Positions 3,285 through 31,118 of a stretch of DNA of 64,000 nucleotides are shown piece after piece. Under the pieces are notes generated by a model, which worked only from the letters and a program-made list of their open reading frames with translations, searched no databases and was not told where the DNA came from. The position numbers were made by a program, and so were the translations under genes. Source of the DNA: Chthoniobacterales bacterium (GTDB lineage Bacteria > Verrucomicrobiota > Verrucomicrobiia > Chthoniobacterales > UBA10450); assembly GCA_038234295.1 (NCBI GenBank), contig JBBSUP010000001.1:3493-67492 (forward strand), read 5' to 3'. Position 1 is the first letter of the stretch; each line of letters starts with the position of its first letter.

Positions 3285-3336
3285 CCCTCGTAAATGCCGG
3301 CATAGCTCAGTTGGTAGAGCAGCTGATTTGTAATCA
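3285..3336 (+). repeat. 52-bp direct repeat, left copy (putative attL)
   Basis: CCCTCGTAAATGCCGGCATAGCTCAGTTGGTAGAGCAGCTGATTTGTAATCA is identical at 3285-3336 and 7440-7491. It comprises 11 nt of leader plus the 5' 41 nt of tRNA-Thr. Confidence 0.9.
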
Positions 3337-7439: not shown

Positions 7440-7491
7440 CCCTCGTAAATGCCGGCATAGCTCAGTTGGTAGAGCAGCTGATTTGTAATCA
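7440..7491 (+). repeat. 52-bp direct repeat, right copy (putative attR)
   Basis: Identical to 3285-3336. Confidence 0.9.
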
Positions 7492-7523
7492 GCAGGTCAT
7501 CGGTTCGAACCCGATTGCCGGCT
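7451..7523 (+). tRNA. tRNA-Thr (anticodon UGU)
   Basis: 73 nt folding as a cloverleaf: acceptor GCCGGCA/TGCCGGC, D-arm GCTC-AGTTGGTA-GAGC, anticodon arm GCTGA-TTTGTAA-TCAGC, variable loop AGGTC, T-arm ATCGG-TTCGAAC-CCGAT. Confidence 0.9.
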
Positions 7524-12100: not shown

Positions 12101-12519
12101 TCGAAGAGGGTGCCGCTTTCGAAGGCCCGCTCCGCGAGCACGCGCTGACAGAAACCGTGGATGGTGAAGATCGGTGCTTCGTCGAAATTATTGAGCGCAT
12201 CCTCGAGCCGCTGCACCGCACCCGAGTCGCGCGCGTGCTTCGCGCGCAGATCCTCGAGCACCTTGTCGTCCGAGTGGCCGGAGCGAAAAGCGGCGATCGT
12301 TAGGCGCAGCTTCTCGCGGATGCGCCCGCGCAGCTCCGCGGTGGCGAGCTCGGTGAAAGTGGTGACTAGGATCCGGTCGATCGTGAGCTCCGGCCGTTCC
12401 AGGAGCAGTCGGAGGACGAGCACGGAAATGGTGAAAGTTTTGCCGGTCCCGGCGCTGGCCTCGATCAGCATCGTGCCTTTGCCGATCTCCGTGTTGGGCA
12501 AATCGAACCGCTCGCTCAT
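9136..12519 (-). CDS. recB: exodeoxyribonuclease V beta subunit (helicase-nuclease)
   Basis: 1127 aa with UvrD-type N-terminus EASAGTGKTFTI, ALIDEFQDTDPVQ and ITVHKSKGLEYDVVF. The C-terminal PD-(D/E)XK nuclease motif is GFIDLTFEHGGRFYIADWKSN. The start overlaps the recC stop (ATGA). Confidence 0.92.
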   Translation of the reverse strand: MSERFDLPNTEIGKGTMLIEASAGTGKTFTISVLVLRLLLERPELTIDRILVTTFTELATAELRGRIREKLRLTIAAFRSGHSDDKVLEDLRAKHARDSGAVQRLEDALNNFDEAPIFTIHGFCQRVLAERAFESGTLFDAELVTNQSELLNEIVFDFWRKHFYEGERFAALLALKNKITPTKLFGLLEELTSNPTLRVLPEANRPLSEIAADLHELLEQLRGAWKDEEEGVRQLFADTKWIGRNRVHADLVRMSGWLDDFATCLSEKGGTVEQLVCLSKLSKRAVHSATLARHPKPERRIFDLCESLLEIDAEFSVAVLVDFFAYARTELAARKQRQNILSFNDLLTRLDDALAAPGGAELARSIREKYQAALIDEFQDTDPVQYQIFSRIYAGSDAPVAYIGDPKQAIYSFRGADVFTYMRAAAAADRKFTLATNWRSESRLVEAVNTIFDHPKPFLLDEIVFEKVTANAQADDQPLRVRGKKEPPFQFWTAEEVADLPARVASEIVRLIGSEATIGGTPLAPGQFAVLTSTNQQATEMQIALRDRRVPSVLYSSANIFTTHEADELRDILAAVVQPTYEKVVRAALCTDALGQTGNDLDRFMNDEKAWETQTLRFQKDHEIWRERGFVQMLRHLSAVHGVRQRLLGFPDGERRLTNFLHLAELLHTACMEQQLGMNGLVKWLAKQMAGGFAEREEHELRLESDEKAVRIITVHKSKGLEYDVVFCPFVAHTMRAPKVYHDASADGRLTLNVADPKAEEPQREKEARAERLRQFYVALTRARHRCTMIWERKEKDDKSAPAYLLDEGGTLSPRIETSAAIHFALVPEATEEKWKPAHEEAPLALAARRFAVEIDRSWGSTSFTRLISGREAEPLDEGMLVEAVVEEVVEAQGIHAFRRGTTAGTCLHEILEKVNFADLSDAREIVARRLLAYGIDGFDKIVLENVQRLVALPLSAGADRFSLSEVPNESRIAELEFSFPIRGLTIAKLADAFQLAQMPLPIERLQFQLSNGFLRGFIDLTFEHGGRFYIADWKSNWLGPTTAAYRPASIAAEMQRNFYTLQLCLYSVALHRYLRVRLPDYDFDRHFGGAFYIFLRGLDPAQPENGVHFERPSREFVEKLSAIFES

Positions 12520-15500
12520 GACTGCATCGCCTGGAGGATCGGCAGGAAAATGGCGCGGGTGGTTTCCTGGAAATTCTCGCCGAGCGGCTCAGCGACATTC
12601 CGGAAAGCGAGCGCGAGATAGGGCTCTTCCGACTCCGCCGGCACGCCGCCGTCGTTTTTATCGTAATGAATCCGCTCCCAAATCTTTCGTGCCGCCGCCA
12701 GAGCGTCCTTATCGTTCAAAGAGGCCTCGGCGAAGGCGAGCGAGCTCTTCGGATAAAACGGCAGCGGTTCGCGCAGTCCGCGCCAATACAGGTCGAGCAA
12801 CTCCTGCAACCGATCCTGTGCAAACGCCGGTTCCACCGGCGCGAAATGGTGCTCCACGGGTTTCCCATATTTATCCGCCGTGATCAGGATCGACGGCGTC
12901 TCGGCTTCGCAATTTGCGACGAGATGATAGATCCACGCCGTGAACAGATCCTTCGGCTTGCACGTCGTCTGGCGGTAATGCACGAGTCGGCCGTCGTAAA
13001 TCTTGTCGAACCGCGCCCGGAGCCTGAACCCTTCAATTTCTAGCTGAACGTCGCGCGCCTCGGCCCGTCCGCTGCCGAGATGTTGCCGGACGAGTCCGCC
13101 AAACTTTTCCGCCGCGTCGATCATTTGCCGCAATCGCGATTCGCCGGCGTGACCGGGCGGGAGTTCGCCGTCCGCGCGGATCACAGGGAGCAGCTGGTCG
13201 AAGTCTTCGTCGGCCAGGGCGCGTTGCAGCAGATCCTGCTGCAGGATGTATTTGTCGAGCCCATCGATCTCGAGCGGCTCGAAATCCTCGAGCGCGTTTT
13301 CCTCCCGCGGGGTCCGAAGGTCCAGCCGCTGTTGCGCGAAAAACTTCGCCGGGTTTCCGAAGAACCTGATCAACGTTTCGGCGTCGAGCTGGCGCAATTC
13401 CGGTTCCGGTTCCCCGAGCGGTGACTGGATAAAAACTGGCGGTGTTTCGCGTTCGCCTGCGGCGGCGACACCGGCTGCGCAGTTCTCCTGCGAGTAGCTG
13501 AAGAGCCCGCCGCCAGGATGGAAATAATCAGCGCTGAACGGCTGCAGCCGATGTCGCCTAACGAGTGGCGCCGGCTCCGCGAACGCGAAACTTTCCCCGG
13601 CATAATCGAGCAACTCGCTCACGAGCACGCTCGGCGGGATGGCGCTGTTATCGCGGATCGATTGGCCGACGTAGCTGACGTAAAAGGTCTCCCGCGCCGA
13701 GAGCAGCGCCTCGAGAAACAGGTAGCGATCGTCGTCACTCGTGGAGCGATCGCCGGGGCGCGGATTTTGCGCGATCAAATCGAAACCGGGCGCGCGGGTG
13801 TGGCGCGGATACGCGGTGTCGTTCATCCCGATGAGACAGACGACGCGGAACGGCACCGTTCGCATCGGCTTGAGCGCGCAGAAGGTGACGCGCCCGTCGA
13901 GAAACCGGGCCCCGCTGTCGGCGTTTGCGAGCGCCTGCGTGAGATGCGCGAGGAGCACGTCGAGCGGGACCGCGTCGGTGAAACCGGAGAGCTCCGCGGT
14001 CTCGCCTAACGAGTCGATGACCCGGCGCAGCTGTCGCAGTTCCGGCTCGCGTTCGTCCTCCGAGGAAAAGAAACGCTGCGCGATCTGGCGGAGCGTTTCC
14101 TGCCAATCAAAGAGCGGCCGCGGATGGTCCAGCGTGCCCGCAGCGGCGAAGAGCGCTTCGCTGAATTCCACAAAACGCCCGAGCGTTTCCGCGAGGCTTC
14201 CCTCGATGTTGTCATAGGCGAGAATGCCCTCGAAAAGTTTCTCCCCCCGCGCCGGCGCGGCGTAACCGAGGAGCAACCGATCCAGCCCGGCGCGCCAGCT
14301 GTTTTCCGCAAACGCAGGCAAGCCGAACGCTGCGCGGTGCTCGGCGTCGATGCCCCAGCGGATTCCCGTTTCGGCGATCCAGGTTCGGATGGTTTCCAAA
14401 TCGGAATCGGCGATCTCGAAGCGCCGCCGAAGCGCGCTCGACTCGAGCACGGCGAGAACGCTGCTGGCAGTGAAGCGACTGCCGGCCATCTCGAGGATGC
14501 TCATGAAGGTGTCGATCACGCCGTTCTCCGCGCGCGCGCCGCGATCGGCGATCGTGAACGGGATCCGCAACGGCTCCGGCGCGGTGTCGAAAACCGCGCC
14601 AATAAAAGGCGCGTAAACCCCGATGTCCGGCGCCCTCACCACGATGTCGTGCGGCTTGAGCGCGGAATTCTGCTCGAAGAGCGCGAGCAACTGATCGTGC
14701 AGCACTTCCATCTCACGCATCGGGCTGTGGCAGGAGTGGAACTGGAGTGAATGATCGTCCGGCGCGACCGGCCGCGGCGTGTCGCCGAGCGGATTGTGAA
14801 GCTCGAAAATGTCGCGCTGGATCTGCGTGAGGACGCTGTCGTGAGGCGGCGGCTCGAAGTTTTCGATCTCCTCCGCAGGCTCGAGGTCGGTCACGGTCTC
14901 GAGAAATTGCCGGCCAAGTTTGCCGTAGGACGCGAGCAGGGGATTGCCGCGCTCGAACTGCATCTCGAGCTGCGCGCTCGGCGAGGTCTTGCGTCGGGCA
15001 CGGCTTTCTTCCCGCTCGGAACGAATGTCGCCCCACCAATGCGAGGTCGGCCGCATCACGAAAAGATGCACGTCGGTCGCGCGCGCGAGGTCTTGGAAAA
15101 GCTCGAGATAAAACGTCGGCAAAGTCGAGATGCCGAAAAGCGAAACCCGCGACGGCAGCATCTTCACGTTTTTGCCTAACGACTTCGAAAATTCCCGCGC
15201 CAGCGCCGGCGGATGCAGCCCTTTTGCTGAGCCGACCACCTCCCGCCAAAGCACCGCCTGCCAATGCGTCTCCTCGCCGCTTTCCCAGGCCAGAATCATC
15301 TTCGGCCGGAACGCGATATACTGATCGAATGAGCTCGCAATCTTCTCCGCGAGCTGGAAAAGGCGGAGCTCCGGACGGGGCTGTTCGAGATAGCGCCGAA
15401 GGTCGGCAAACTCCTCGCGGCTCACCAGCTTCGGAAGCAGATGCACGACCCGCCAGGTAAGATTTTCCCGGGCATAGAAGCGCGCGTCGGCCTGGTCGGG

Positions 15501-15734
15501 TAGCGCATTATCCAACAGCCCGGCGACGAAACGCTGCGGGAAAACGAACTCGACATTTGCACAAATTCCCAGCGCTTCCGCGAGCCGCAGCGTGATCCAG
15601 CGGCCCATTCCTGAGCTCTGCACGACCACAATTTCCGGGTCGAAAATTCCACCCGCCGGTTGCCGGACGAGCGCCGCCAGGTCCGCCAGCAGGTGCTCGA
15701 GGCGGTTGCTGGTGTGGAGCTGGAGGCCGGACAT
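12516..15734 (-). CDS. recC: exodeoxyribonuclease V gamma subunit
   Basis: About 1070 aa beginning MSGLQLHTSNRLEHLLADL (alternative ATG 15746). Length, position upstream of recB-recD and RecC-like N-terminus support the call. The track ORF extension to 15881 runs through a repeat element. Confidence 0.88.
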   Translation of the reverse strand: MSGLQLHTSNRLEHLLADLAALVRQPAGGIFDPEIVVVQSSGMGRWITLRLAEALGICANVEFVFPQRFVAGLLDNALPDQADARFYARENLTWRVVHLLPKLVSREEFADLRRYLEQPRPELRLFQLAEKIASSFDQYIAFRPKMILAWESGEETHWQAVLWREVVGSAKGLHPPALAREFSKSLGKNVKMLPSRVSLFGISTLPTFYLELFQDLARATDVHLFVMRPTSHWWGDIRSEREESRARRKTSPSAQLEMQFERGNPLLASYGKLGRQFLETVTDLEPAEEIENFEPPPHDSVLTQIQRDIFELHNPLGDTPRPVAPDDHSLQFHSCHSPMREMEVLHDQLLALFEQNSALKPHDIVVRAPDIGVYAPFIGAVFDTAPEPLRIPFTIADRGARAENGVIDTFMSILEMAGSRFTASSVLAVLESSALRRRFEIADSDLETIRTWIAETGIRWGIDAEHRAAFGLPAFAENSWRAGLDRLLLGYAAPARGEKLFEGILAYDNIEGSLAETLGRFVEFSEALFAAAGTLDHPRPLFDWQETLRQIAQRFFSSEDEREPELRQLRRVIDSLGETAELSGFTDAVPLDVLLAHLTQALANADSGARFLDGRVTFCALKPMRTVPFRVVCLIGMNDTAYPRHTRAPGFDLIAQNPRPGDRSTSDDDRYLFLEALLSARETFYVSYVGQSIRDNSAIPPSVLVSELLDYAGESFAFAEPAPLVRRHRLQPFSADYFHPGGGLFSYSQENCAAGVAAAGERETPPVFIQSPLGEPEPELRQLDAETLIRFFGNPAKFFAQQRLDLRTPREENALEDFEPLEIDGLDKYILQQDLLQRALADEDFDQLLPVIRADGELPPGHAGESRLRQMIDAAEKFGGLVRQHLGSGRAEARDVQLEIEGFRLRARFDKIYDGRLVHYRQTTCKPKDLFTAWIYHLVANCEAETPSILITADKYGKPVEHHFAPVEPAFAQDRLQELLDLYWRGLREPLPFYPKSSLAFAEASLNDKDALAAARKIWERIHYDKNDGGVPAESEEPYLALAFRNVAEPLGENFQETTRAIFLPILQAMQS

Positions 15735-15778
15735 GTTCGCGAACATATCACAGCCGCCACATGCGCCGAGCGACGCGC

Positions 15779-15866
15779 GTGGAGGGACGGGCACTGTCCC
15801 GTCCGCGTTCCGTCGGCCAGCCGGGAACGCCAGCCAGACACGGACGACACGGCGGTCGTCCCTCCA
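15779..15866. repeat. intergenic hairpin repeat, family R2 (GTGGAGGGACGGGC..GTCCCGTCCG ... GGACGACACGGCGGTCGTCCCTCCA)
   Basis: Three copies, at 15779-15866, 21603-21681 and 31040-31118. The outer arms GGAGGGACG/CGTCCCTCC and inner hairpins GGGAC..GTCCC and GACGAC..GTCGTC are self-complementary. Confidence 0.85.
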
Positions 15867-15879
15867 GCACGTCCCAGCC

Positions 15880-15948
15880 ATTGTCCGGGCGGGCGCTTCG
15901 CCTGCCTCGATTAATGAACCGGGGCAACCGAAGCGGTCGCCCTACAAT
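15880..15948. repeat. intergenic hairpin repeat, family R1 (TGTAGGGCGGGCGCTTCGCCTGCC ... GGCAACCGAAGCGGTCGCCCTACA)
   Basis: Copies at 15880-15948, 21531-21593, 30953-31000 and 37550-37604, plus a half copy at 30364-30391. The ends are inverted repeats (TGTAGGGCG / CGCCCTACA; GCGCTTCG / CGAAGCG). Confidence 0.85.
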
Positions 15949-16036: not shown

Positions 16037-16624
16037 ATGAATCCTGAACAAACACCCGACCCGGCGATCCGGGTGAACTTCAATCCCGACAACCGCCCCG
16101 AAGAAGGGGAGGAAGCCGGCAAGGTCGATCGGATCCGCGATATTCTTTTCGGCACGCAGATGCGCGATTACGACGGTCGTTTCCAGCGGCTCGATGAACG
16201 CCTGGGCCGGGAAGCAGCCGAGGCCCGCGGCGAAGTGCAGCGGCGCATCGAAGGTCTCGAGACTTTTCTTAAGGCCGAAGTCCAGGCGCTGACCAACCGC
16301 CTCAACGTCGAGCAATCCGATCGCGTCAGCGCGATCGAAAAACTCGCGCAGGACCTCGCGAACACGGCGCGCGCGCTCGAGGGAAAAATCAAGGGCCTCG
16401 ACGACCAGACCGCGCGGGAGCTACACACGCTCCGCGAACAACTGCTCGAACAATCGAAGGCGCTCAACGCCGAGATCAAAGACAAGCACGACCAGATGAA
16501 AGCCGGCCTGGACCAGGAGGCGGAGAAAATCCGCAACGCCATGACCGGCCGCGAATCGCTCGCCGAGATGTTGAGCGAAGTCGCGCTGCGCCTAAAGAAC
16601 CAGTTTCACGTCCCCAGCGCCTAA
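16037..16624 (+). CDS. coiled-coil protein, unknown function (first gene of GTPase operon)
   Basis: 195 aa from ATG 16037. It shows a heptad-rich Glu/Lys/Leu/Gln composition (RLDERLGREAAEARGEVQRRIEGLETFLKAEVQALTNRL..). The stop TAA lies inside a GCCTAACGA copy, and the next gene starts 14 nt later. Confidence 0.6.
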   Translation: MNPEQTPDPAIRVNFNPDNRPEEGEEAGKVDRIRDILFGTQMRDYDGRFQRLDERLGREAAEARGEVQRRIEGLETFLKAEVQALTNRLNVEQSDRVSAIEKLAQDLANTARALEGKIKGLDDQTARELHTLREQLLEQSKALNAEIKDKHDQMKAGLDQEAEKIRNAMTGRESLAEMLSEVALRLKNQFHVPSA

Positions 16625-16637
16625 CGACCGAGCGAGG

Positions 16638-18566
16638 ATGCGCGGATCGTCTCGTGACGCGGTGGAGGAGTTCGAGGAACTCCGCCGCCTCTTGCTCAGC
16701 TCGGAGCGTAAGGAACTCGCGGAGCTGCGCGAGCAGATTACCGACAAGGAGCGGCGCTCGCAGGACATCGCCGCCGTCCTGCCCGCGGCGATAAAAATGA
16801 GCCGTGAACGCGGCGGCGAACTCGCCGGCGCGCTCCGGCCCGCGGTCGAATCTTCCGTGCAGGAATCGATCGAGCGGCGCCCGGAAACTTTCGTCAACGC
16901 GCTCCATCCGATTATCGGGCCGATCGTCCGGCGCTCGCTCGCCGAGAGCATGCGGCGGTTGCTTCAGTCGCTGAATCAATCGCTCGAGCACACCTTTTCG
17001 TGGCGCGGTTTGAAGTGGCGCTTCGAGGCGCTCCGCACCGGCAAAAGCTTCGCCGAAGTGGTGATGCTGCGGAGCCTGGTCTATCGCGTGGAGCAGGTTT
17101 TTCTCATCCATCGCGAGACGAGTCTGGCGTTGCTCCACGCCTCCGCCGATCCCGCGCTCAGTCGCGATTCCGACATGGTCGCGGGGATGCTCAGCGCGAT
17201 TCAGGATTTTGCGCGCGACTCTTTTCAGACCGGCGCCGATTCGAATCTCGAAGAGTTCCGCATCGGTGAGCTCCAGGTTTGGATCGCGCCCGGGCCGTCG
17301 GCTTATCTCGCGGCGGTGATTCGCGGAAATCCTTCGCGTGAACTGCGGACCACGCTCGAGGATGCGATCGACGGCATTCATACTTTGAAAGGCTCGGCGC
17401 TCGCGAATTTCCAGGGAGATCCCGCCGTGTTCGAGTCGCTTCGGCCCGAGCTCGAGAACTGCCTGCGCGCGCAGTATGCCGAGAAAAAAGGCAAGAGACG
17501 CCCGACCCGCGCGTGGTTTCTCATCATTTTAGCGGCATCAGTTGTCGCGGCCGCCCTGATCGCCCTCGGGCTGCACGCGCGGCATTGGTCGCGGTTCGTT
17601 AGGCAACTGCGCACCTATCCCGGCATCGTCGTGACCGAGGCCGAGCATCATTGGTTTGGGAAATCGCAGGTCGCTGGTTTGCGCGATGCCGCCTCGACCG
17701 ATCCTGCGAAGATCACCCGCGCCGCCGGTTTGGATCCGGCCGACATCGATTTCCAGTGGAAGGATTATCTCGCGCTCGACGACGCGAGCGTGCAGCGCCG
17801 TTTCGAGTCGCGCTTCGGCGTGCCGCAGGGCGCGGGTCTGAGCCTGCACCAGGGCGTGCTCACGCTGACCGGCACGCCACCTTACGAATGGCTCGATCGC
17901 GTCCGGCACGAAGGGACGCTCGTGTCCGGCGTGGACTCGATCGTCGATCAGGCCGCGAAAATTTCCTACGATCGCAATCTCGCGCAGGAGCGCTTCGAGG
18001 CGCGCTTCGGTTTGCCCGATGGAATTTATGCGCAGGTGACAGACGGCGTGCTCAGCCTTTCCGGCGAAGCCACGCACCGCTGGTTGAAACGCGTGGAGGC
18101 CGAAGCCGCGAAGTTGCCGGGCATCGATTCGGTCGATGCGAGCAACGCCGTCGATCTCGATCAGCGCGCATTTAGTCAGTCGAAATCGATCATCGAAAGC
18201 GCCTTCGTTTACTTCCTCATCAACAAGGACAACATCGCGACCGAGGGCTTCGCCGCGCTCTCGCGCTTGCCCGACGAAATCCGCCGCTGCGACACCGCCG
18301 CGCGCCGCATCGGCGTCGAGATTTCCATCGAGATCGACGGCTACGCCGACGCGGTTGGCGACGACGTCAGCAACAGCGACCTCAGCCGTCGGCGCGCGGA
18401 AAAAGTTCGTGAGTTTTTGCTCACCTGTGGCTTCGATGCGCGCATGCTCGAAGCGGTCGGCAAAGGTCGCCGCCAACCGGTCCCAGGTGAGAAGGCGCTG
18501 CCTGAGGAATCTGACCGACGCGCTGAACTTAAGGTCATCAGTCGCCCCATCGTCGCGAAGCCATGA
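16638..18566 (+). CDS. membrane protein: cytoplasmic N-terminal domain, one TM helix, two BON-like repeats, C-terminal OmpA/MotB peptidoglycan-binding domain
   Basis: 642 aa with TM helix AWFLIILAASVVAAALIALGL. There is an internal duplication RRFESRFGVPQGAGLSLHQGVLTLTGTPPYEWLDRVRHEG / ERFEARFGLPDGIYAQVTDGVLSLSGEATHRWLKRVEAEA. The OmpA-like C-terminus is IEIDGYADAVGDDVSNSDLSRRRAEKVREFL..GKGRRQPV. Confidence 0.8.
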   Translation: MRGSSRDAVEEFEELRRLLLSSERKELAELREQITDKERRSQDIAAVLPAAIKMSRERGGELAGALRPAVESSVQESIERRPETFVNALHPIIGPIVRRSLAESMRRLLQSLNQSLEHTFSWRGLKWRFEALRTGKSFAEVVMLRSLVYRVEQVFLIHRETSLALLHASADPALSRDSDMVAGMLSAIQDFARDSFQTGADSNLEEFRIGELQVWIAPGPSAYLAAVIRGNPSRELRTTLEDAIDGIHTLKGSALANFQGDPAVFESLRPELENCLRAQYAEKKGKRRPTRAWFLIILAASVVAAALIALGLHARHWSRFVRQLRTYPGIVVTEAEHHWFGKSQVAGLRDAASTDPAKITRAAGLDPADIDFQWKDYLALDDASVQRRFESRFGVPQGAGLSLHQGVLTLTGTPPYEWLDRVRHEGTLVSGVDSIVDQAAKISYDRNLAQERFEARFGLPDGIYAQVTDGVLSLSGEATHRWLKRVEAEAAKLPGIDSVDASNAVDLDQRAFSQSKSIIESAFVYFLINKDNIATEGFAALSRLPDEIRRCDTAARRIGVEISIEIDGYADAVGDDVSNSDLSRRRAEKVREFLLTCGFDARMLEAVGKGRRQPVPGEKALPEESDRRAELKVISRPIVAKP

Positions 18567-19066
18567 TCCAAAAAAAAGTCTGCATGATCGGCGCGTCCGG
18601 CGTCGGGAAAACGAGCCTGGTCGCGAAGTTCGTCCACAGCATGTTCTCGGATAAATACCTCACCACCGTCGGAGTAAAGATCGATAAAAAGACGGTCGCG
18701 GTCGACGGCGCCGAGGTCATGCTCATGATCTGGGATCTCGCGGGCGACGACGATTATCAGCGGCTCCAGACTTCGTATTTGCGCGGGACGAGCGGCTATC
18801 TTCTCGTCGCGGATGGGACGCGCGCGGTGACGCTCGATCAGGTGCTCGAAATTCAGAGGCGGGTCGCGGAGGCGGTCGGCGCGCAGGTGCCATTTCTGCT
18901 CGCGCTCAACAAAGCGGATCTCGTGAACCAGTGGGAGATCGACGAGAAGCGGATGGCCGACCTCGAGACGCGCGGCTGGAAGAGTTTTAAGACGAGCGCC
19001 AAGGAAGGCGCGAGCGTGGAAGAGGTCTTCGTCGAGCTCGGACGCCGGATGTTGCCGCCTGCCTAA
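18563..19066 (+). CDS. Ras-superfamily small GTPase
   Basis: 167 aa carrying all five G motifs: G1 GASGVGKTS, G2 Thr in YLTTVGV, G3 WDLAGD, G4 NKAD, G5 TSAK. The ATG overlaps the upstream stop (ATGA). Codons 3-5 form an A8 run (18570-18577). Confidence 0.85.
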   Translation: MIQKKVCMIGASGVGKTSLVAKFVHSMFSDKYLTTVGVKIDKKTVAVDGAEVMLMIWDLAGDDDYQRLQTSYLRGTSGYLLVADGTRAVTLDQVLEIQRRVAEAVGAQVPFLLALNKADLVNQWEIDEKRMADLETRGWKSFKTSAKEGASVEEVFVELGRRMLPPA

Positions 19067-19072
19067 CGAGTC

Positions 19073-20182
19073 ATGGCGGCCGTAAATTCTTCCGCCAGCG
19101 CCGCGCTCGAAGCGCTCGGGTTCGCTCTTTTCCTGCGCGATGAAAGCGGTTCGATTCGCCTCCACGGCGCGGGCCCCGCGTGGCTCGCCGGTCTCTGGCC
19201 TGGCCTCACCACGACGTTGCCGGTCGCGGAGGCTTCGCCGTTTCTGGAGAACTTCCTCATCGACGCCGAAGAATCCTGGAGCGCCGGCGGCGCGACCCGC
19301 GTCCAATCCGGAGCGTGGATCGAGCAAACCGCCGAGGGCGACGAAGTCTCGCTCGAGGCGACGGCGCTTACGCTCGACGGCCAGCCAGCGTTGCTGCTCG
19401 AGAAACTGGGCGAAGTTTTCGAGAAGAAAAAAGCGATCCTGCAACACGCGCGCGAGACCGTCATCGCTTACCAGCGTTTGAATTCCGAGACGCAGAAGAA
19501 GGAGATTCTCCTCAGCTGCATCGCGGAGGAAATGAACGCTGCGCTCGCCAATGTCATCACCGCGTTGCGCTTGATCGAGCTGGAAAAACATTCCGCACGC
19601 GCGCAGCAACTGCTCAGCCTCGCGCTCCGTGCGACCGAGGAACAACAGGCGCTGATCAACAAGGTCCTCAACGTTTTCGCGGCCGAACTCGAAGGTCTTT
19701 ACGGCCGCGACGGCGAGATCGCGGCGGTGGCGTCGTTAGGCCAAGCTCTGCCCGCGGCCGGCGCTGCGCTCGCCGGAGCGTTCGCGGAAAAACGTGCGCA
19801 ACTTCAGTTACCTGACGAGTCCGCCGATCTTCCCTGGGTCGCGATGAATGCCGAACATCTCGAACGCGTCGCCACGAACTTGCTCGAGAATGCGCTCGAA
19901 AACGCCCCCGCCGCCGGCGTCGTCACCGTCTCGGTAAACACCGGCGACGACACCATCGAAGTCCGCGTGCAGGACAATGGCGCGCCGCTGCCGGCAAATA
20001 CGGATGCCGATTTTTTCGCGCGTGTCACGATGACGAACGCCGAGGCTTCCGGACGGCAGTTGCGTCTGCAGTTTTGCCGCATGGCGGTGGAAAAATGCCG
20101 GGGCGAATTCGGCTTCGACGCCGAGGGCGAGGGCAACTGCTTTTGGATTCGGCTCCCGCGCGCCGCTGCTCCCGCCGCATGA
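19073..20182 (+). CDS. histidine-kinase-like protein with degenerate H-box and ATP lid
   Basis: 369 aa. The DHp-like helix KKEILLSCIAEEMNAALANVITAL has Ala where the phospho-His is expected. An N-box NLLENALENA is present, but the G1/G2 boxes are degenerate (QDNGAPL, ASGRQLRLQF). Confidence 0.7.
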   Translation: MAAVNSSASAALEALGFALFLRDESGSIRLHGAGPAWLAGLWPGLTTTLPVAEASPFLENFLIDAEESWSAGGATRVQSGAWIEQTAEGDEVSLEATALTLDGQPALLLEKLGEVFEKKKAILQHARETVIAYQRLNSETQKKEILLSCIAEEMNAALANVITALRLIELEKHSARAQQLLSLALRATEEQQALINKVLNVFAAELEGLYGRDGEIAAVASLGQALPAAGAALAGAFAEKRAQLQLPDESADLPWVAMNAEHLERVATNLLENALENAPAAGVVTVSVNTGDDTIEVRVQDNGAPLPANTDADFFARVTMTNAEASGRQLRLQFCRMAVEKCRGEFGFDAEGEGNCFWIRLPRAAAPAA

Positions 20183-21498
20183 AGACGCTGGTCCTGATCG
20201 ACAGCGACTCCCTCACCCGCACGCTCATTTCCGAGTGCTTAATGGGAAGAGATTGGCGCGTGCTCGAAGCAGAAGACGGCCAGGCCGGGCTCGATCTCGT
20301 GCTCCAACATCAGCCGGAAGCGGTCATCTGCGAGATGCGCACGCCGAAGCGCAACGGCTTCCAGGTTTGCCGCACGATTCGCGAGCAGGATCCGCAGAAA
20401 TCGACCCGCGTGATCCTCACGACGGTGAGCCGTTTCGCGAACGATCGCGAGACCGCGTTTGCGGGCGGAGCGGATGACTACCTCATCAAACCGATCGTTC
20501 CCGGGGAGCTGCTCAAAGCGCTCGCTGCCGCCGGCCAGAACGGCGCGCCGGTCGCGGAGGAATCCGCGCCCGAGCCAGTCGCAACCGGGCCGACGCTCGT
20601 GCGTTTTTGGGGCGTGCGCGGATCAATCCCGTCGCCGGGCAAGGAGACTTCCGATTACGGCGGCAACACTTCCTGCGTCGAGGTTCGCGTCGGGAATCGC
20701 ATCATCATTCTCGACGCGGGTTCGGGCATTCGCCGCCTCGGCCAATCGCTCATGAAAGAGATCACGGCCGACGGCCTCGACGTCACCATGCTGATCACGC
20801 ACACGCACTGGGATCACATCCAGGGCTTCCCGTTTTTTGTGCCCGCCTACCATCCGAAAGTGAACATTCGCATCCTCGGTTACGAGGGCGCGGTCCATGG
20901 ATTGCGGGGCGCGCTTTTCGAGCAAATGCAGACGGCGTTTTTCCCGGTCGGCCTGAACCAGATGGCGACGCATCTGACCTTCGAGGAGATGGACGACATG
21001 CAGTTCGACCTCGGCGGTTCGGTGAAAGTGCGGACGATTTTCGCGAACCATCCCGGCATCTGCCTCGGCTATCGCCTCACGACTCCGAACGGCGACGTCG
21101 TTTACATGCCCGATCACGAAGCCTACGAACGCTGCGAGTTCGAACGCCAGAAAGCGGAGAAGGAAACTTCCGAGGCCGGTCTCGAATACGCGCGCCAGCA
21201 GGATGAGAAAGTCGTCGAATTTCTCCGCGGCGCGGAAGTGGTGATCGCGGATTCGCAATACGACGCGGTCGAATATCCGACCCGGCGCGGCTGGGGCCAC
21301 ACCTGCGCGGACGACACCGCGCTCCTCGCCGCGCGGGCCGGCGCGAAACGGGTTTACCTCTTCCACCACGATCCCGACCACGACGACGCGAAGATGGCGA
21401 AGATGGTGGAGAGCGCGCAGGCGGTTGTGCGACAAAGCGGCCTGCAGGTTCAGGTCTTCGCCGCGCGCGAAGGCGAGACTTTGTCGTTAGGCAGCTAG
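20179..21498 (+). CDS. receiver-like domain (Glu at phospho-acceptor position) fused to MBL-fold metallo-hydrolase
   Basis: ATG 20179 overlaps the upstream TGA. REC-like features are LVLIDSD, ..EAVICEMRTPKRNGF (E in place of D), VILTT and YLIKP. The MBL motif is ITHTHWDHIQGFPFF. The track ORF start 20074 is an upstream extension. Confidence 0.8.
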   Translation: MKTLVLIDSDSLTRTLISECLMGRDWRVLEAEDGQAGLDLVLQHQPEAVICEMRTPKRNGFQVCRTIREQDPQKSTRVILTTVSRFANDRETAFAGGADDYLIKPIVPGELLKALAAAGQNGAPVAEESAPEPVATGPTLVRFWGVRGSIPSPGKETSDYGGNTSCVEVRVGNRIIILDAGSGIRRLGQSLMKEITADGLDVTMLITHTHWDHIQGFPFFVPAYHPKVNIRILGYEGAVHGLRGALFEQMQTAFFPVGLNQMATHLTFEEMDDMQFDLGGSVKVRTIFANHPGICLGYRLTTPNGDVVYMPDHEAYERCEFERQKAEKETSEAGLEYARQQDEKVVEFLRGAEVVIADSQYDAVEYPTRRGWGHTCADDTALLAARAGAKRVYLFHHDPDHDDAKMAKMVESAQAVVRQSGLQVQVFAAREGETLSLGS

Positions 21499-21530: not shown

Positions 21531-21593
21531 TGTAGGGCGGGCGCTTCGCCTGCCCCGATTCAAACTGGGCAACCGAAGCGGTCGCCCTACAAT
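21531..21593. repeat. R1 hairpin repeat copy
   Basis: TGTAGGGCGGGCGCTTCGCCTGCCCCGATTCAAACTGGGCAACCGAAGCGGTCGCCCTACAAT. Confidence 0.85.
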
Positions 21594-21602
21594 TTGCGCG
21601 CC

Positions 21603-21681
21603 GTGGAGGGACGGGCGCCGTCCCGTCCGTGTCTGGTTGAGATCGGAACCAAACGGGGACGACACGGCGGTCATCCCTCCA
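21603..21681. repeat. R2 hairpin repeat copy
   Basis: GTGGAGGGACGGGCGCCGTCCCGTCCG...GGACGACACGGCGGTCATCCCTCCA. Confidence 0.85.
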
Positions 21682-21701: not shown

Positions 21702-21983
21702 ATGATGAAAGCAACCTGGCACAACACTACCCTCGCCGAGAGCGACGATACCGTGGTCGTCGAAGGCAATCACTACTTCCCCGACGATTCCCTGAAGCGC
21801 GAATATTTCCGCGCGAGCGATCAGCACAGCCATTGCCCGTGGAAAGGCGAAGCGAGCTACTACGACATCGCCGTCGACGACGACGTGAACAAAGGCGCGG
21901 CCTGGTTTTATCCCGAGCCGAAGGAAGCTGCCGCCAGCATCAAGAACCACGTCGCATTCTGGAAAGGCGTCGAAGTCGCCTAA
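21702..21983 (+). CDS. DUF427-family protein
   Basis: 93 aa from ATG 21702. The sequence KATWHNTTLAESDDTVVVEGNHYFP..CPWKGEASYYDI..AAWFYPEP matches my memory of the DUF427 pattern. The track ORF start 21594 lies inside repeat R2. Confidence 0.75.
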   Translation: MMKATWHNTTLAESDDTVVVEGNHYFPDDSLKREYFRASDQHSHCPWKGEASYYDIAVDDDVNKGAAWFYPEPKEAAASIKNHVAFWKGVEVA

Positions 21984-22117: not shown

Positions 22118-24976
22118 TTATTGGAGCCGAAAAGCTTCCACTAACCCGACCCCGATCCCGCCGTCCTTCCCCGCGACGATCGCGGTGTAGTTACCCGGAC
22201 CCAACGTCTGCACGAGGGCTGACTCGAGATTCTTCGTCGGTGGAATGCCCGTCGCGAGGATCGCGGCCATCTGATCGTCCTTCCAGTTATCGTTACTCCG
22301 CACGAGGTTGCCGTCCGGGTCGCGCAATTCCAGCGTCGGATCGGCCAGCGCCCCGCTCACCCCGGCGTCGCCCAGCGACGGGCCGAGAGCTCGGACCAGG
22401 ACCGTGTTGTCGCCGGTTCCGCCCGCGAGAATGAAGCCACCAATCATCACGTTCGCGCCCGTTCCTACCTTTCCTCTGGTGCTGATGTTGGCGAACTCTG
22501 AGTCTGCGGCCCCCGCCAAGTCGTACGCTTCGACCAAGGCGACGCCGCTCCCGCCGCTCTTGCCCTTGACCACCAGGGTGTAGGTGGCACCCGGTTCCAG
22601 TTCCGCGATGATGGCTGACTCTTTGTCATTCGTCGGAGGAACGCCGGTGGCGATGATCGCCGCCTTTTGCGTCGTCTTCCAGTTATCGTTACTCGTGATC
22701 AGCGAACCATCGCCACCATGTAGCTCCAGCACCGGGTCGGCCAGCACCCCCGTGACTCCGAAATCCGCCAGGGACGGACCGATCGCGCGCAGGATCACCG
22801 TCTTGGTTTCCGTCCCAGTCACGATGAAGCCTCCGATGAGGACGTCTTCGCCGGTCTCGACGCGGAGCCGGGTGGAGATGTTTTGGAACCGATTCGGGAG
22901 GGACGGCGCGAGGGCGACGACAAAGGGCGAAAGCGAATCGACCTCGGCGCAGACGGTGCGACTGGCGAAGTCTAACGACTGCAAGTCCGTGCGATCCACT
23001 AACTCTCCGTCTTCTCCGTGCAGGATGCGAACCCGGGCAAAAACGTCTGCGTCCGTGATCGAGTTGACGGTGAAGCAAACGGTGATGGGTGCGGTAAAAG
23101 TGGCTGTGGTGTTGATGTCGTAAGCCGGCGCGCCTTCCAGAATGTTGTAACCCTCCGGAGGAAGACCGGCCGAGGAAGGTGGCACAATCGCAGCAAAGGT
23201 CGTAAAGCCGGCCTTGGTAATCGATTGGAACGTCACGGTGGCGTCGCCCGCGGGAGCCTCGACGCTCACATCACTCCCCTTCGTCGTATTCGCCGGTTGA
23301 TCTTCAAACGCCCCTATATCCGACCCATCGCCGCCCGCGGCGTTGGGGACGGAAAGATTGTTGAAAGGCCGGGGTAGTGCGCGCTGATCGGTGATGACAT
23401 CTGCGCTCTTGCCCTTATCGATCGCGGGGCTGCCTGGGAGCAGGGCATGGGTAAGTGTGGGGCCGCCGTTGTTAGCCAGGGGACCTACCTTCGGATCGAC
23501 GTTAAACTGATCGCCAGTAGCAGCGGCGCTGTTGTTAGTATTGGCGGTATTGCCGATGATGTTGTAGCCGGCGGAATCGAATCCGCTGTAAAGATCGGGT
23601 CCGTTTCCCGCGGTGTTGCCCGCAATGATCGAGTTTTGGAGTTTAGGGCGGAATAGGAATTCTCCGTTCCCGCTCCTGAGTATCTCACCGTCAAATATTC
23701 CACCACCTCCATCACGGACAAAATTACTGGCTCCGGCAGAATTATTAACAACCGTTGAATTGATGAGTTCCAGACCAGTACTAAAATTATATATCCCACC
23801 GCCCCTTTCAGCGGCAGAGTTGCCGGAAATGGTTGAATTGATTATTCTTGTTATCTGTCCGCTCTGAGTTCCCGCGTCGGATACAGAAATCCCGCCTCCC
23901 GCGCCTTGACGGCTCGGCGGAATTCCGTCGGCGGAATTGTTCGAAACCGTCGAATCAATTATCGTAACGATACCTGAGGGATTACGAATTTGAATTCCAC
24001 CGGGACCAGATGCCCCGAAATTATTTGAAACTGTCACTCTTCGGAAGGTTACGACAGCTCCTCCATTCGTATTGATACCTCCAACCGTCCCGCCGCCGGT
24101 AGCTCCGGCTACATTGCCGGAAATGATAGTATCCGACATATCTACTTCGGCTTGGAAAAAGTCGATTCCGCCATAGGCTCCCTTCGAATTATTGCCGGTG
24201 ATCTGACAATTCGTAATGACATTAGTTCCGCGATAAATAGAAATGCCGCCAGTATTGCCCGATATAGCCCGATTGTTTGAAACGATTGTGTTTCGCATTG
24301 TGAGCTTATCAACTTCGAGGTATGTGGCAAATCCTCCAGCATTATTCGCGGAGTTTTCAGTAATCAGTGAATCGTTAATGGCAACACTTTTAACTCCGTT
24401 AAAATACATTCCTCCACCACTTGAGTTAGAGTTAGTGGTTATGACATTGTTTCTGATCACCATCGAATTCAGGGTTAGATTCGCCGCCAATTGAGCATAA
24501 ATCGCTCCGCCAATTGCGTTACTAACACCGCCAAAACCGCCAACACCGTTGCCGTCCCGCAGCGTCATTCCGTTCATCGTGACATTGGCATTTTGTTGTT
24601 CCTGACCCGGATTGCCGGCTAACAGAAATATCCGGCTGGCATTGTTGCCGCTGATCGTTAAGAGATTCGCTCCCGGTCCGTTGATCGTGACGAGTCTGCC
24701 CGTTTGTCCATTGAAATGCTGATCATCGGGGGTAATCAGGATCTCTCCGGTCGTCAACGTGATCGTGCGGGCGACGTTGAAAAACGTCGGGTCGAAATTG
24801 ATCGTATCCGCCTCCCCGTTCGTGTTCGCCGCCTCGATCGCCGCGCGCAGACTCCCCGCGCCGCTATCCTTTACGTTGGTGACGGTAAAGGTCGCCGCCG
24901 CGAGCTGCAGAGCAGAGGCGAGCAGAGCGAAAGCGATGAGAATCGGCGTTTTTCCCAAGAGTTTTTTCGTTGTCAT
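22118..24976 (-). CDS. secreted right-handed beta-helix repeat protein with two C-terminal ~110-aa repeat domains (copy A)
   Basis: Signal peptide MTTKKLLGKTPILIAFALLASALQLAAA. Many N/G/T-rich ~22-aa turns (..NSA..GGGI.., ..ISGN.A..GG..) typical of parallel beta-helix or polymorphic-membrane-protein repeats. The C-terminal tandem domain is ISTR..V.TG..V.IGGFI....V..RA.GPSL...GV.G.LADP.LEL....G....NDNWK..Q.. x2. Confidence 0.75.
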   Translation of the reverse strand: MTTKKLLGKTPILIAFALLASALQLAAATFTVTNVKDSGAGSLRAAIEAANTNGEADTINFDPTFFNVARTITLTTGEILITPDDQHFNGQTGRLVTINGPGANLLTISGNNASRIFLLAGNPGQEQQNANVTMNGMTLRDGNGVGGFGGVSNAIGGAIYAQLAANLTLNSMVIRNNVITTNSNSSGGGMYFNGVKSVAINDSLITENSANNAGGFATYLEVDKLTMRNTIVSNNRAISGNTGGISIYRGTNVITNCQITGNNSKGAYGGIDFFQAEVDMSDTIISGNVAGATGGGTVGGINTNGGAVVTFRRVTVSNNFGASGPGGIQIRNPSGIVTIIDSTVSNNSADGIPPSRQGAGGGISVSDAGTQSGQITRIINSTISGNSAAERGGGIYNFSTGLELINSTVVNNSAGASNFVRDGGGGIFDGEILRSGNGEFLFRPKLQNSIIAGNTAGNGPDLYSGFDSAGYNIIGNTANTNNSAAATGDQFNVDPKVGPLANNGGPTLTHALLPGSPAIDKGKSADVITDQRALPRPFNNLSVPNAAGGDGSDIGAFEDQPANTTKGSDVSVEAPAGDATVTFQSITKAGFTTFAAIVPPSSAGLPPEGYNILEGAPAYDINTTATFTAPITVCFTVNSITDADVFARVRILHGEDGELVDRTDLQSLDFASRTVCAEVDSLSPFVVALAPSLPNRFQNISTRLRVETGEDVLIGGFIVTGTETKTVILRAIGPSLADFGVTGVLADPVLELHGGDGSLITSNDNWKTTQKAAIIATGVPPTNDKESAIIAELEPGATYTLVVKGKSGGSGVALVEAYDLAGAADSEFANISTRGKVGTGANVMIGGFILAGGTGDNTVLVRALGPSLGDAGVSGALADPTLELRDPDGNLVRSNDNWKDDQMAAILATGIPPTKNLESALVQTLGPGNYTAIVAGKDGGIGVGLVEAFRLQ

Positions 24977-25246
24977 ATGGATTTTCGTTTGGTCGTGGTA
25001 CGCGGACGGGACATCGTCCTGCAACCGGTAAGAAGCGAATTTGTGCGAAAAGCGGCCAAACTATTTTGGCCGCGGAGGGCGCGGCCCGCCTGGATGTGAG
25101 CTCGGCGTCTGACGCAGGCTCACGGCGACAGAGTGCCGTCGCGACAACTGCGGCCCAGCCCGGGAGCCTTGCCACGCTCCGTGGAGAGCGTAGTTTGATG
25201 CTGTCGTCGGGTTGCGGCTGCGGTCTGTTTTCTGCGTAGTAGCTGG

Positions 25247-25849
25247 ATGTCGCCTATGAGTGCCTCACCGCCACAGCAGTACGTCACGCAGATGCTGGTC
25301 GATTGGAGCCGCGGTAATCGCGAGGCTGCGGTTCAGCTCATGCCGCTGGTCTATGACGAGCTGCGCCTGATCGCCCGCGGTTATCTCCAGCGCGAGCGGA
25401 GCGATCATACCTTGCAAGCCACCGCGCTGGTTCACGAAGCGTATCTCCGGATGGTCGATCAAACGCAATTGACCTGGAAAAACCGCGCCCATTTCTTCGG
25501 CGTGGCGGCGCGGGTGATGCGACGGATTCTGGTCGATCACGCCCGGCGGCATCGGGCCGGGAAGCGGGGCGGCGCTTGGGCGAAAGTGGAACTGGACGAA
25601 GCGCGCCTGAGCGCTGGGTCGCGCCCGCTGGATCTGGTCGTCCTCGATGAAGCGCTCATGGATCTGGCGAAGCTCGATCCGCGGCAGAGCGAGATCGTCG
25701 AGTTGCGCTTCTTTGGCGCTCTTACGTTCGAGGAAGCGGCCGAAGTGCTCGACGTCTCGCCGCGGACGGTGCGGCGGGACTGGCGGATCGCGAAGGCGTG
25801 GCTGCGGCGGGAGATCTTTGGGGAAAAAGAGGATGCGAGCACGGCCTGA
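25247..25849 (+). CDS. ECF sigma factor of the Ser/Thr-kinase-associated type (copy A)
   Basis: 200 aa. The signature VTQMLVDWSRGNREAAVQLMPLVYDELRLIARGYLQRERSDHTLQATALVHEAYLRMVDQ is one I recognise from the TIGR02999 / ECF43-like group. Region-4 HTH is EIVELRFFGALTFEEAAEVLDVSPRTVRRDWRIAKAWL. The kinase gene overlaps its end. Confidence 0.85.
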   Translation: MSPMSASPPQQYVTQMLVDWSRGNREAAVQLMPLVYDELRLIARGYLQRERSDHTLQATALVHEAYLRMVDQTQLTWKNRAHFFGVAARVMRRILVDHARRHRAGKRGGAWAKVELDEARLSAGSRPLDLVVLDEALMDLAKLDPRQSEIVELRFFGALTFEEAAEVLDVSPRTVRRDWRIAKAWLRREIFGEKEDASTA

Positions 25850-30363: not shown

Positions 30364-30391
30364 ATTGTAGGGCGGGCGCTTCGCCTGCCCC
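30364..30391. repeat. R1 repeat, left half only
   Basis: ATTGTAGGGCGGGCGCTTCGCCTGCCCC without the matching right arm. Confidence 0.7.
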
Positions 30392-30952: not shown

Positions 30953-31000
30953 ATTGTAGGGCGGGCGCTCCGCCTGCCCTGATTCATAAACCTGGGCAAC
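30953..31000. repeat. R1 repeat copy (right arm degraded)
   Basis: ATTGTAGGGCGGGCGCTCCGCCTGCCCTGATTCATAAACCTGGGCAAC. Confidence 0.75.
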
Positions 31001-31039
31001 CACCGAGACAGGCGCCATCAAATGCCGCCCGATGTGCGT

Positions 31040-31118
31040 GTGGAGGGACGGGCGCCGTCCCGTCCGTGTGTGGTCGGCGCCGAAAAGAAACTCGGACGAC
31101 GCGGCGGTCGTCCCTCCA
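31040..31118. repeat. R2 hairpin repeat copy
   Basis: GTGGAGGGACGGGCGCCGTCCCGTCCG...GGACGACGCGGCGGTCGTCCCTCCA. Confidence 0.85.

Follow-up and report, generated by a model that had tools for sequence, protein, structure and literature searches.

What kind of system is formed by five closely packed genes that bring together a Ras-like GTPase, a peptidoglycan-binding membrane protein and a two-component pair with altered phosphorylation residues? Such genes, here named g1 to g5, were found on the + strand of a 64,000-nucleotide (nt) stretch of Chthoniobacterales (Verrucomicrobiota) DNA, hereafter called the window, which has a G+C content of 56–65%. They encode, in this order, a cytoplasmic coiled-coil protein, a membrane anchor, a small GTPase, a kinase-like output protein and a receiver domain fused to a metallo-beta-lactamase (MBL) hydrolase. 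An original prediction, made from the sequence alone, had taken this for an undescribed combination. Based on the comparison of sequence features and gene neighbourhoods given below, we are confident that the operon belongs to the Group 1 Rup kind of GTPase neighbourhood, of which it represents a lineage-specific form. The nearest homologs of g4 were labelled Chthoniobacterales or Verrucomicrobiota, and the top-ranking genome loci came from Chthoniobacterales metagenome-assembled genomes.

The Rup family of prokaryotic Ras-superfamily GTPases was defined by genome comparison (Wuichet & Søgaard-Andersen, Genome Biol Evol 2014; PMC4316618). Its Group 1 was described there as a conserved four-gene neighbourhood consisting of a coiled-coil cytoplasmic protein, a DUFX-TM-OmpA protein (TM, transmembrane), the Rup GTPase and a signalling output; in Table S2 of that work, the gene order is written as DUFY>DUFX:OmpA>Rup. 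The Group 1 GTPase is without the catalytic Gln of the G3 motif, and the N-terminal region of the output protein (GGDEF/EAL or histidine kinase) contains an invariant Gln, which was proposed to be supplied in trans to the GTPase. The genes g1–g4 show the Group 1 features, namely the G1–G5 motifs of the Ras superfamily, a Gln-less G3, the DUFY and DUFX:OmpA proteins, the gene order and an output protein with the invariant Gln. The claim of an undescribed combination thus turned out to be wrong for four of the five parts, since the coiled-coil protein, DUFX-TM-OmpA, Rup and an output kinase with an invariant Gln are all in PMC4316618. What stood of the claimed novelty was the receiver–MBL fifth gene and the degenerate phosphorelay, both of which are absent from the 2014 description.

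The Group 1 neighbourhood of 2014, uncharacterised experimentally, shares with the window operon the gene order, the Gln-less G3 and a histidine-kinase-type fourth gene with the invariant Gln in its N-terminal part. In contrast to it, the window operon comes from Verrucomicrobiota, a phylum absent among the 27 members, and contains a predicted clade-wide pseudokinase together with a fifth, receiver–MBL gene in a conserved block. Neither Verrucomicrobia and Acidobacteria nor a lactamase-type gene are among the 27 Group 1 members in the tables of PMC4316618. In that paper, no fold was given for DUFX, and the PAS fold of the output N-domain went unmentioned. New here are the variant with a predicted pseudokinase and a disabled-receiver–MBL protein, the folds proposed for two formerly unknown domains, and a larger spread and output diversity. 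As of 2014, no Rup member had been characterised experimentally (PMC4316618), and later experimental work on Rup GTPases was not found in our literature search.

To what extent is this arrangement kept outside the window? One genome per species was scanned with the N-terminal domain of g2 (residues 1–287), and at least 586 genome stretches were confirmed as matches; the best 80 of these loci were annotated with the window proteins. The trio g1-g2-g3 occurred in identical order in all 75 of the loci in which all three genes were detected, and the remaining 5 of the 80 loci were short or ended within g2. The 80 loci came from at least 10 phyla and included Verrucomicrobiota, Acidobacteriota, Chloroflexota (Dehalococcoidia), Clostridia, Nitrospirota and Cyanobacteria, as well as Desulfobacterota, Gamma- and Betaproteobacteria, Mariprofundaceae, Armatimonadota, Binatia and others. 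Loci were also recovered from taxa named in PMC4316618 (Nitrospira, a filamentous cyanobacterium, Gammaproteobacteria), with GTPase E-values from 1e-48 to 1e-57. At the protein level, 4,416 cluster representatives (50% identity) belonged to the family of the g2 N-domain at E ≤ 1e-3; at the stricter limit of E ≤ 1e-30, the number was 1,621. Chance adjacency of the genes was excluded by the 80-locus survey.

Within the order, the conservation extends to the fifth gene. The five-gene block was present in the same order in 13 of 13 complete Chthoniobacterales loci (L001, L002, L004–L009, L011–L013, L015 and L016), and it was partly present in two short metagenome contigs (L099 and L119), which carry g5. 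The flanks of the block differ among the loci with listed neighbours (L001, L002 and the window). The block can be regarded as a conserved unit, and the conservation of the neighbourhood beyond this genome, on which the original prediction depended, was found in the kept order of the trio.

The junctions between the genes were read off the sequence. Between g1 and g2, the TAA stop codon is followed by 13 nt, including GAGG, and then by ATG; between g3 and g4, TAA is followed by 6 nt and ATG; and the g2/g3 and g4/g5 junctions are ATGA overlaps (−4 nt each). All five open reading frames (ORFs) were found on the + strand where they had been predicted. Of the predicted gaps of 14, −4, 7 and −4 nt, the two overlaps were right, while the other two were each one nucleotide too long. 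Because the genes overlap or nearly abut, the co-expression of g1–g5 is very likely, in agreement with what had been claimed. The Pfam scan and the reading of the junctions also bore out the predicted domain architecture and tight coupling, apart from the BON identity of the repeats in g2, which is discussed below. A promoter and terminator scan was uninformative (1 promoter-like site against 0.8 expected). In the Rfam scan of the window, an RNA element was absent in or near the operon; the sole matches were two tRNA genes elsewhere (3296–3368 and 7451–7523).

The product of g3 matched Ras (5.9e-35) and Roc (2.9e-23) in Pfam. Its motifs G1 (GASGVGKT), G3 (DLAGD), G4 (NKAD) and G5 (SAK) are conserved across 78 GTPases of the system. 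The best solved relatives are Rab8, Sec4 and Rab1, and the catalytic Gln67 of Rab8 aligns with Asp62 of g3. The residue after DxxG in G3 is Glu or Asp in 68 of the 78 GTPases and Gln in only 1. A further site was observed in the P-loop: at the position equivalent to Gly12 of Ras (residue 12 of g3, 18596–18598), Phe was found in 54 of 78 and Ser in 15 of 78 sequences, the latter including the window GTPase. A bulky residue at this position is unusual among Ras-like proteins and may bear on the catalysis of hydrolysis.

The invariant Gln of the output protein could be located in g4. The N-domain of g4 models as a PAS fold (AlphaFold2; predicted local distance difference test (pLDDT) of 81, predicted template-modelling score of 0.73), and its Foldseek matches were nearly all PAS/LOV structures, such as LOV, FixL, DosP and ARNT. 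In the helix that follows (residues 114–137), Gln124 is invariant and Ala126 and Arg127 are nearly so, with the motif LQxAR[ED]. The conservation of Gln124 was determined in a 62-sequence alignment, containing 61 proteins with the g4 N-domain from the 80 genome loci and the window protein, and in alignments A5 and A6. The RabGAPs of the TBC type possess a dual finger, and we infer that the Gln and Arg of g4, one helical turn apart, may recall it. In contrast to TBC RabGAPs, there is no TBC fold here, and the Gln and Arg are placed on a helix following a PAS domain.

The 61 proteins with the g4 N-domain in the best 80 loci are not all kinases. In the sample scanned, the domain was fused to a histidine kinase, a hybrid kinase with receiver and Hpt, HD-GYP, an adenylate/guanylate cyclase, SpoIIE/PP2C, a sigma-54 AAA+ activator with HTH_8, PAS only, or GAF plus a kinase. 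These varied fusions extend the range of outputs beyond the two types given in 2014. Proteins consisting of the g4 N-domain alone also occur. In some Acidobacteriota-type loci, stand-alone PAS-like N-domains without an enzyme domain were observed just upstream of the coiled-coil gene (L048, 5764–6258; L049, 5831–6271; L069, 5713–6189), and P0389 is a stand-alone PAS-like output N-domain of 147 residues with 32 member sequences. It should be noted that a profile search with the g4 N-domain gave mainly short or fragmentary proteins and was used as an alignment source, not as a census of outputs.

What could connect the GTPase with the envelope is g2. Its N-domain (residues 1–287) was matched by no Pfam model. 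The best conserved part of the protein, residues 147–256, contains the motif YRVEQVFLIHRETG...MLxAIQDFxRDSF. An AlphaFold2 model of the N-domain, built on 62 diverse homologs, had a mean pLDDT of 78; within residues 147–256 the block means were mostly 72–97, down to 66 at residues 191–200, and the modelled order of elements was beta-beta-alpha-beta-beta-beta-alpha. In a Foldseek search of the PDB, the examined matches were overwhelmingly longin/roadblock folds, mostly of small-GTPase regulators. They included Mon1-Ccz1 (1.9e-4), MglB with MglA, LAMTOR/Ragulator, GATOR1 and FLCN-FNIP, and also TRAPP Bet5/Trs23, AP sigma, zeta-COP, dynein LC7 and an Asgard Roadblock protein. Based on this model, the cytoplasmic domain of g2 is likely a longin/roadblock fold. 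Structurally, the anchor domain is closest to the eukaryotic Mon1-Ccz1, TRAPP and Ragulator/LAMTOR complexes, with a sequence identity of only 8–23% in the Foldseek alignments. A match to Robl_LC7 was absent in the Pfam scan of the operon products, and the roadblock-like fold was seen by the structure model only.

On the other side of the membrane, g2 matched OmpA in Pfam (3.8e-10; 40.4 bits against a cut-off of 27.2). In the motif GYADAVGDDVSNSDLSRRRAEKV (GYADAVG...LSRRRAEKV), the Asp and Arg that characterise peptidoglycan binding by OmpA-type domains are present. Two tandem repeats of 55 residues each (residues 385–439 and 449–503), corresponding to the DNA repeats D8 and D19 with a 192-nt spacing, precede this domain. 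They had been predicted to be BON-like. The repeats themselves were found, but their BON identity remained below the threshold (E 0.036–0.069; 14–15 bits against a cut-off of 27) and concerned the second repeat only.

An anchor with a roadblock/longin-like fold, as in MglB, with a peptidoglycan anchor and a coiled-coil partner, would also suit a module that is mainly a spatial, polarity or envelope-machine regulator. MglA-type GTPases control polarity (PMC4316618), and in a system of this sort the peptidoglycan-anchored roadblock protein would position the GTPase, the enzyme genes being accessory. We consider this rather unlikely: the scanned proteins that share the g4 N-domain carry signalling domains, most of them enzymatic or transcriptional, which points to signal transduction, and the GTPase is Rab/Ras-like and not MglA-like. 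The MglA/MglB systems of Myxococcus and Thermus likewise combine a small Ras-superfamily GTPase with a roadblock-type partner and have links to receiver-domain proteins. They differ from the window operon, where the roadblock/longin-like domain is fused to a membrane/peptidoglycan anchor and where the output is an enzyme, not motility machinery. Another system to compare is the actinobacterial conservon (CvnA-D / Mfp), which also combines a membrane sensor, a histidine-kinase-like protein, a roadblock fold and a small GTPase, and whose GTPase was proposed to replace the response regulator as a switch. Here, in contrast, the roadblock-like domain lies within the membrane anchor, the GTPase belongs to a different family, and the operon additionally encodes a peptidoglycan-binding domain and a coiled-coil partner. 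Unlike in the conservon, a match to DUF742 (CvnC) was absent in the Pfam scan of the operon products.

We therefore return to a signal-transducing module and to the question of what its output is in Chthoniobacterales. Besides the HATPase_c match, g4 showed only a sub-threshold match to HisKA in Pfam. Relatives of g4 in other phyla have the H-box LLHCIIHDLSQPL with the G1 motif DDEGPGLP and the G2 motif GKAGLGLYFC and are canonical kinases. In Chthoniobacterales every sequence was degenerate, with the H-box LL[SH]C[IV][AS][ED][ED]M, G1 DNGxx and G2 xLxLQFC. Of the 120 closest homologs, 106 had Glu at the acceptor position, 9 had Asp, one had Gln and none had His; the other 4 were fragments without the motif. 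In the window protein, the H-box LLSCIAEEMNAAL has Glu152 in place of the His of relatives from other phyla, the N-box is kept (NLLENALENA), and G1 (DNGAPLP) and G2 (RQLRLQFCR) are degenerate. The protein thus departs from canonical histidine kinases in having no acceptor His and degraded G1 and G2 boxes. The predicted kinase without His was therefore found as described, and by its motifs g4 is a predicted pseudokinase throughout the clade.

The receiver of g5 has changed as well. In alignments with solved receivers (3t6k, ArlR), Glu52 takes the place of the acceptor Asp, and the conserved Thr and Lys are retained; compared with the canonical response-regulator set, the acceptor Asp and the acidic pair are altered. 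Among 16 orthologs of g5, the acceptor is Asp in 14, Ala in one (L009) and Glu only in the window. In the ortholog with Ala (L009, 10655–12163; AVLCALRLP), the acceptor was lost independently of the change to Glu in the window. The receiver had been predicted to be without the acceptor Asp, which is right for the window sequence but does not hold as a feature of the system. The metal-binding residue, equivalent to D13 of CheY and D10 of PhoB, is Ser or Asn in 16 of 16 g5 orthologs, and Asp throughout the wider receiver–MBL family. The loss of the metal-binding residue and the drift of the acceptor fit relaxed selection on phosphorylation.

Does the pair nevertheless still run a phosphorelay? 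The g5 receiver could be phosphorylated by another kinase or acetyl phosphate, with g4 acting as a phosphatase or scaffold and the GTPase merely modulating an ordinary two-component output. The prevalence of Asp at the acceptor position, the kept Thr and Lys, the N-box retained in g4 and the canonical versions of the pair in L019, L084 and L085 would agree with this. We nevertheless judge it unlikely, given that every readable close homolog of g4 is without His, that the G1 and G2 boxes of g4 are degenerate, that the metal-binding Asp is lost in every g5 ortholog, and that the acceptor itself is replaced in this genome and in L009. In most phyla the output is a functioning histidine kinase or another enzyme. 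In Chthoniobacterales the kinase has lost its His and ATP-lid glycines and the receiver its metal-binding Asp, and the pseudokinase–receiver pair is most likely a phosphorylation-independent adaptor.

The hydrolase domain of g5, in turn, appears to be preserved. Its metal site is intact (HTHWDH at residues 208–213 and a later His/Asp; invariant columns in alignment A4), and the Pfam match to Lactamase_B_2 reached 53 bits against a cut-off of 27. In a direct sequence search of the PDB with the MBL domain, zero matches were obtained, and in a profile search the best ones were RNase Z and ElaC1 (4e-7 to 1e-6, partial alignments). The domain is probably a phosphodiesterase or nuclease resembling RNase Z/ElaC. 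With the MBL phosphodiesterases of the RNase Z/ElaC/PhnP type, g5 shares HxHxDH and the later His/Asp ligands; it differs from them in the weak similarity, which lies below the NCBIfam cut-off, and in the fusion to a receiver.

The receiver–MBL family is a large one, with matches in at least 592 metagenome stretches, and most members lie away from Rup genes. Some members stand beside ordinary kinases, and in others the receiver and the MBL domain are encoded by separate genes. The motifs HTHWDHIQGFPFF and GGNTSCVE were observed in the family, whose domain order and fusion state vary; split receiver and MBL genes beside a kinase were seen in L088, L089 and L121, and the order MBL-then-receiver in L129, L133 and L135–L140. 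Receiver–MBL response regulators were not found described in our literature search. Receiver–MBL genes join Rup clusters in at least 3 arrangements: they follow the pseudokinase in Chthoniobacterales, precede g1 in L019, L084 and L085, and follow a protein with the g4 N-domain in L158. In Chthoniobacterales, g5 follows g4 in the 13 complete loci and in L099 and L119, overlapping or abutting in each case. L019, L084 and L085 are Acidobacteriota-type loci, and the receivers of all three keep the residues DDD...D; the kinase of L019, the only one examined of the three, keeps the His and the G boxes. The L019 type looks like a working ancestor of the pair, that is, a Rup-controlled kinase with a cognate receiver–MBL protein, and the Chthoniobacterales pair looks like a derivative in which the partnership was kept and the chemistry lost.

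From the above, we suggest how the module may work. The anchor g2 would span the inner membrane, with its OmpA-like domain on peptidoglycan, and report an envelope- or peptidoglycan-linked state to the cytoplasmic longin/roadblock domain. This domain, perhaps aided by g1, would control the nucleotide state of Rup, in the way that MglB, Ragulator and Mon1-Ccz1 act on their own GTPases. Rup-GTP would then bind the PAS/helix module of g4 and switch the output protein. It is possible that Gln124 of g4, possibly with Arg127, completes the active site of the GTPase in trans, so that signalling and switch-off would be coupled. In Chthoniobacterales, g4 would serve as a scaffold passing its state by protein contact to g5, whose phosphodiesterase/nuclease activity would be switched. 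As a whole, we hold this mechanism to be moderately likely; its starting points are the observed anatomy, conservation and motif states and the modelled folds. The comparative data (His in 0 of 116 readable g4 homologs, degenerate G1 and G2 boxes, metal-binding Asp lost in all g5 orthologs) agree with the original prediction of a phosphorylation-independent module that is gated by a GTPase and tied to the cell wall.

Several points weigh against it. Since experiments on Rup systems were not found, all the functional steps are inferred, and the role of the output protein as a trans-Gln donor or GTPase-activating protein (GAP) is a published hypothesis and not a result (PMC4316618). The longin/roadblock assignment of g2 has modest Foldseek scores (E 2e-4 to 5e-3; target-normalised template-modelling score 0.46–0.68), and the confidence of the model is low at residues 60–120. 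Judged from its sequence, the anchor could act on the GTPase as a guanine nucleotide exchange factor or a GAP, or be a mere tether. With the acceptor Asp kept in most g5 orthologs, phosphorylation by acetyl phosphate or another kinase could persist. The likeness of the MBL domain to RNase Z is weak, the score against the NCBIfam RNase Z model TIGR02651 (59 bits) being far below the cut-off of 293.

A possible nuclease at the end of an operon with a peptidoglycan anchor also brings anti-phage defence to mind, with a sensor resembling the peptidoglycan anchor ZorB of Zorya, a GTPase switch and an MBL nuclease effector. Weak PADLOC matches linked g1 to ZorA coiled-coil tails and g2 to the OmpA-like part of ZorB. 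These matches did not exceed 21 bits and covered coiled-coil or OmpA-like segments only, and g3, g4 and g5 had no real match to a defence family. Furthermore, all 13 complete loci recovered from the order contain the block, which looks vertically inherited, it lies among housekeeping genes (PriA, aminotransferase, RecB/RecC-like) and not in a defence island, and the outputs in other phyla are a kinase, a cyclase or a sigma-54 activator. We regard defence as highly improbable, and the PADLOC signal was set aside as coiled-coil and OmpA-segment noise. A GTPase-controlled signalling module thus continues to be the reading that we prefer.

The coiled-coil protein g1 had only weak Pfam matches of the coiled-coil type. 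In the 80 genome loci, its homologues lie directly upstream of the g2 homologue and share an N-terminal motif, DRIRDILFGxQMRDY, and a C-terminal one, TGRxxLAExLSExALRL. An alternative start of g1 is the TTG at 16016. Residues 25–60 of g1 (16109–16216; IRDILFG.Q..DY..RF.RLEERL) resemble residues 4–35 of g2 (16647–16742; LR.LLLGPE....L..L..RLDD). A homologous N-terminal motif in the two proteins was unsupported, as BLASTP found nothing and hhalign aligned these segments with an E-value of 0.1 and a probability of 0.6%.

The operon is flanked by GC-rich intergenic hairpin repeats of two families, with the cores GGAGGGACGGGCRCYGTCCCGTCC and GTAGGGCGGGCGCTTCGCC / GGGCAACCGAAGCGGTCGCCCTACA, far above chance (0 expected). 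The repeats had been described as bracketing the block. They are indeed present on both sides, but the bracket is not specific to the block and is incidental. A role of the repeats as part of the system was rejected, since they recur elsewhere in the window (~30367 and 30956–31117) and were absent in 163 of 163 related loci, including ones with the same operon. They look like dispersed elements of the REP (repetitive extragenic palindromic) type, specific to this genome or its close kin. The hairpin directly after g5 has 30-nt arms and could act as a terminator.

Regarding the neighbouring genes, a DUF427 (NTP_transf_9) gene was observed just downstream of the operon in the window (21702–21983) and in L002 (11020–11298). 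As it is absent in L001, this gene is probably a matter of local synteny rather than a part of the system. Directly upstream, on the − strand (9136–15881), lie two ORFs of 1127 and 1121 residues, which by their motifs, judged by eye, look like a helicase-nuclease of the RecB/AddA type and a RecC-type protein, respectively. Further downstream, also on the − strand (22118–25024), a 968-residue protein with a secreted, parallel beta-helix-type look contains Gly/Asn/Ser repeats and two C-terminal copies of a module of ~130 residues (D1 and D2, 396-nt spacing). At 25247–28328, an ORF of an extracytoplasmic function (ECF)-type sigma factor (200 residues) overlaps the start of a Ser/Thr-kinase-like ORF of 893 residues with a tail resembling tetratricopeptide repeats; from the translation, these have the look of a coupled regulatory pair.

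Table 1. Positions in the window of the five genes, of the domains and motifs of their products, and of the hairpin repeats (aa, amino acid residues).
Feature	Position	Strand	Basis or remark
g1, cytoplasmic coiled-coil protein, 195 aa	16037..16624	+	ORF list; 'DUFY' equivalent
g2, membrane anchor, 642 aa	16638..18566	+	ORF; Pfam OmpA; 'DUFX:OmpA' equivalent
g2 aa 1-146, long cytoplasmic helices	16638..17075	+	AlphaFold2; helices 5-146, lower confidence at aa 60-120
g2 aa 147-256, longin/roadblock-like alpha/beta domain (modelled)	17076..17405	+	AlphaFold2 and Foldseek
g2 aa 292-314, single transmembrane helix AWFLIILAASVVAAALIALGLHA, preceded by KKGKRRPTR	17511..17579	+	Read from sequence
g2 aa 385-503, two tandem repeats of ~55 residues, periplasmic	17790..18146	+	DNA repeats D8, D19
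g2 aa 561-620, OmpA-like peptidoglycan-binding core	18318..18497	+	Pfam OmpA
g3, Rup-type small GTPase, 167 aa	18563..19066	+	ORF; Pfam Ras
g4, output protein, kinase-like	19073..20182	+	ORF; Pfam HATPase_c
g4 aa 1-139, PAS-fold N-domain (aa 1-113, modelled) and Gln124 helix	19073..19489	+	AlphaFold2, Foldseek, alignments
g4 degenerate H-box, Glu152 at the position of the phospho-acceptor His	19508..19546	+	Motif comparison
g4 HATPase_c-like domain	19850..20164	+	Pfam HATPase_c 6.7e-15
g5, receiver and MBL hydrolase	20179..21498	+	ORF; Pfam Response_reg, Lactamase_B_2
g5 aa 1-125, receiver, Glu52 at the acceptor position, D8-S9 replacing the acidic pair	20179..20553	+	Pfam Response_reg 7e-19; alignment
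g5 aa 140-439, MBL-fold hydrolase domain	20596..21498	+	Pfam Lactamase_B_2 3.4e-14; invariant columns
Hairpin repeats	15778-15948, 21531-21681, 30367-30379, 30956-31117		

Rup systems are very common, as shown by the hundreds of genome loci from at least 10 phyla and the thousands of protein clusters in this survey. If the module is an ordinary envelope-stress sensor, the value of the present results lies mainly in annotation. A much broader reading can be put forward only tentatively, as a possibility that may well not hold: bacteria would widely have a Rab-like GTPase circuit with the logic of eukaryotic small GTPases, in which a membrane-anchored longin/roadblock platform controls the nucleotide state and an effector supplies Gln, perhaps also Arg, in trans, and Chthoniobacterales would have made a two-component pair into a phosphorylation-independent adaptor that switches an RNase Z-like phosphodiesterase on a cell-wall signal.

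The proposed fold assignments tie a Rab-like bacterial GTPase to a longin/roadblock partner, a fold that regulates eukaryotic Rab, Rag and Arf-family GTPases. The proposed trans-acting Gln is now placed on a defined helix, which opens a ten-year-old hypothesis to simple mutational and binding experiments. Beyond the Rup clusters, the receiver–MBL response regulators represent a large unstudied family. Finally, the Chthoniobacterales form may be seen as a natural experiment in which the phosphorelay appears to be disabled and the partners are retained, and it would be suited to studying how the signal of a GTPase is passed on without phosphate.

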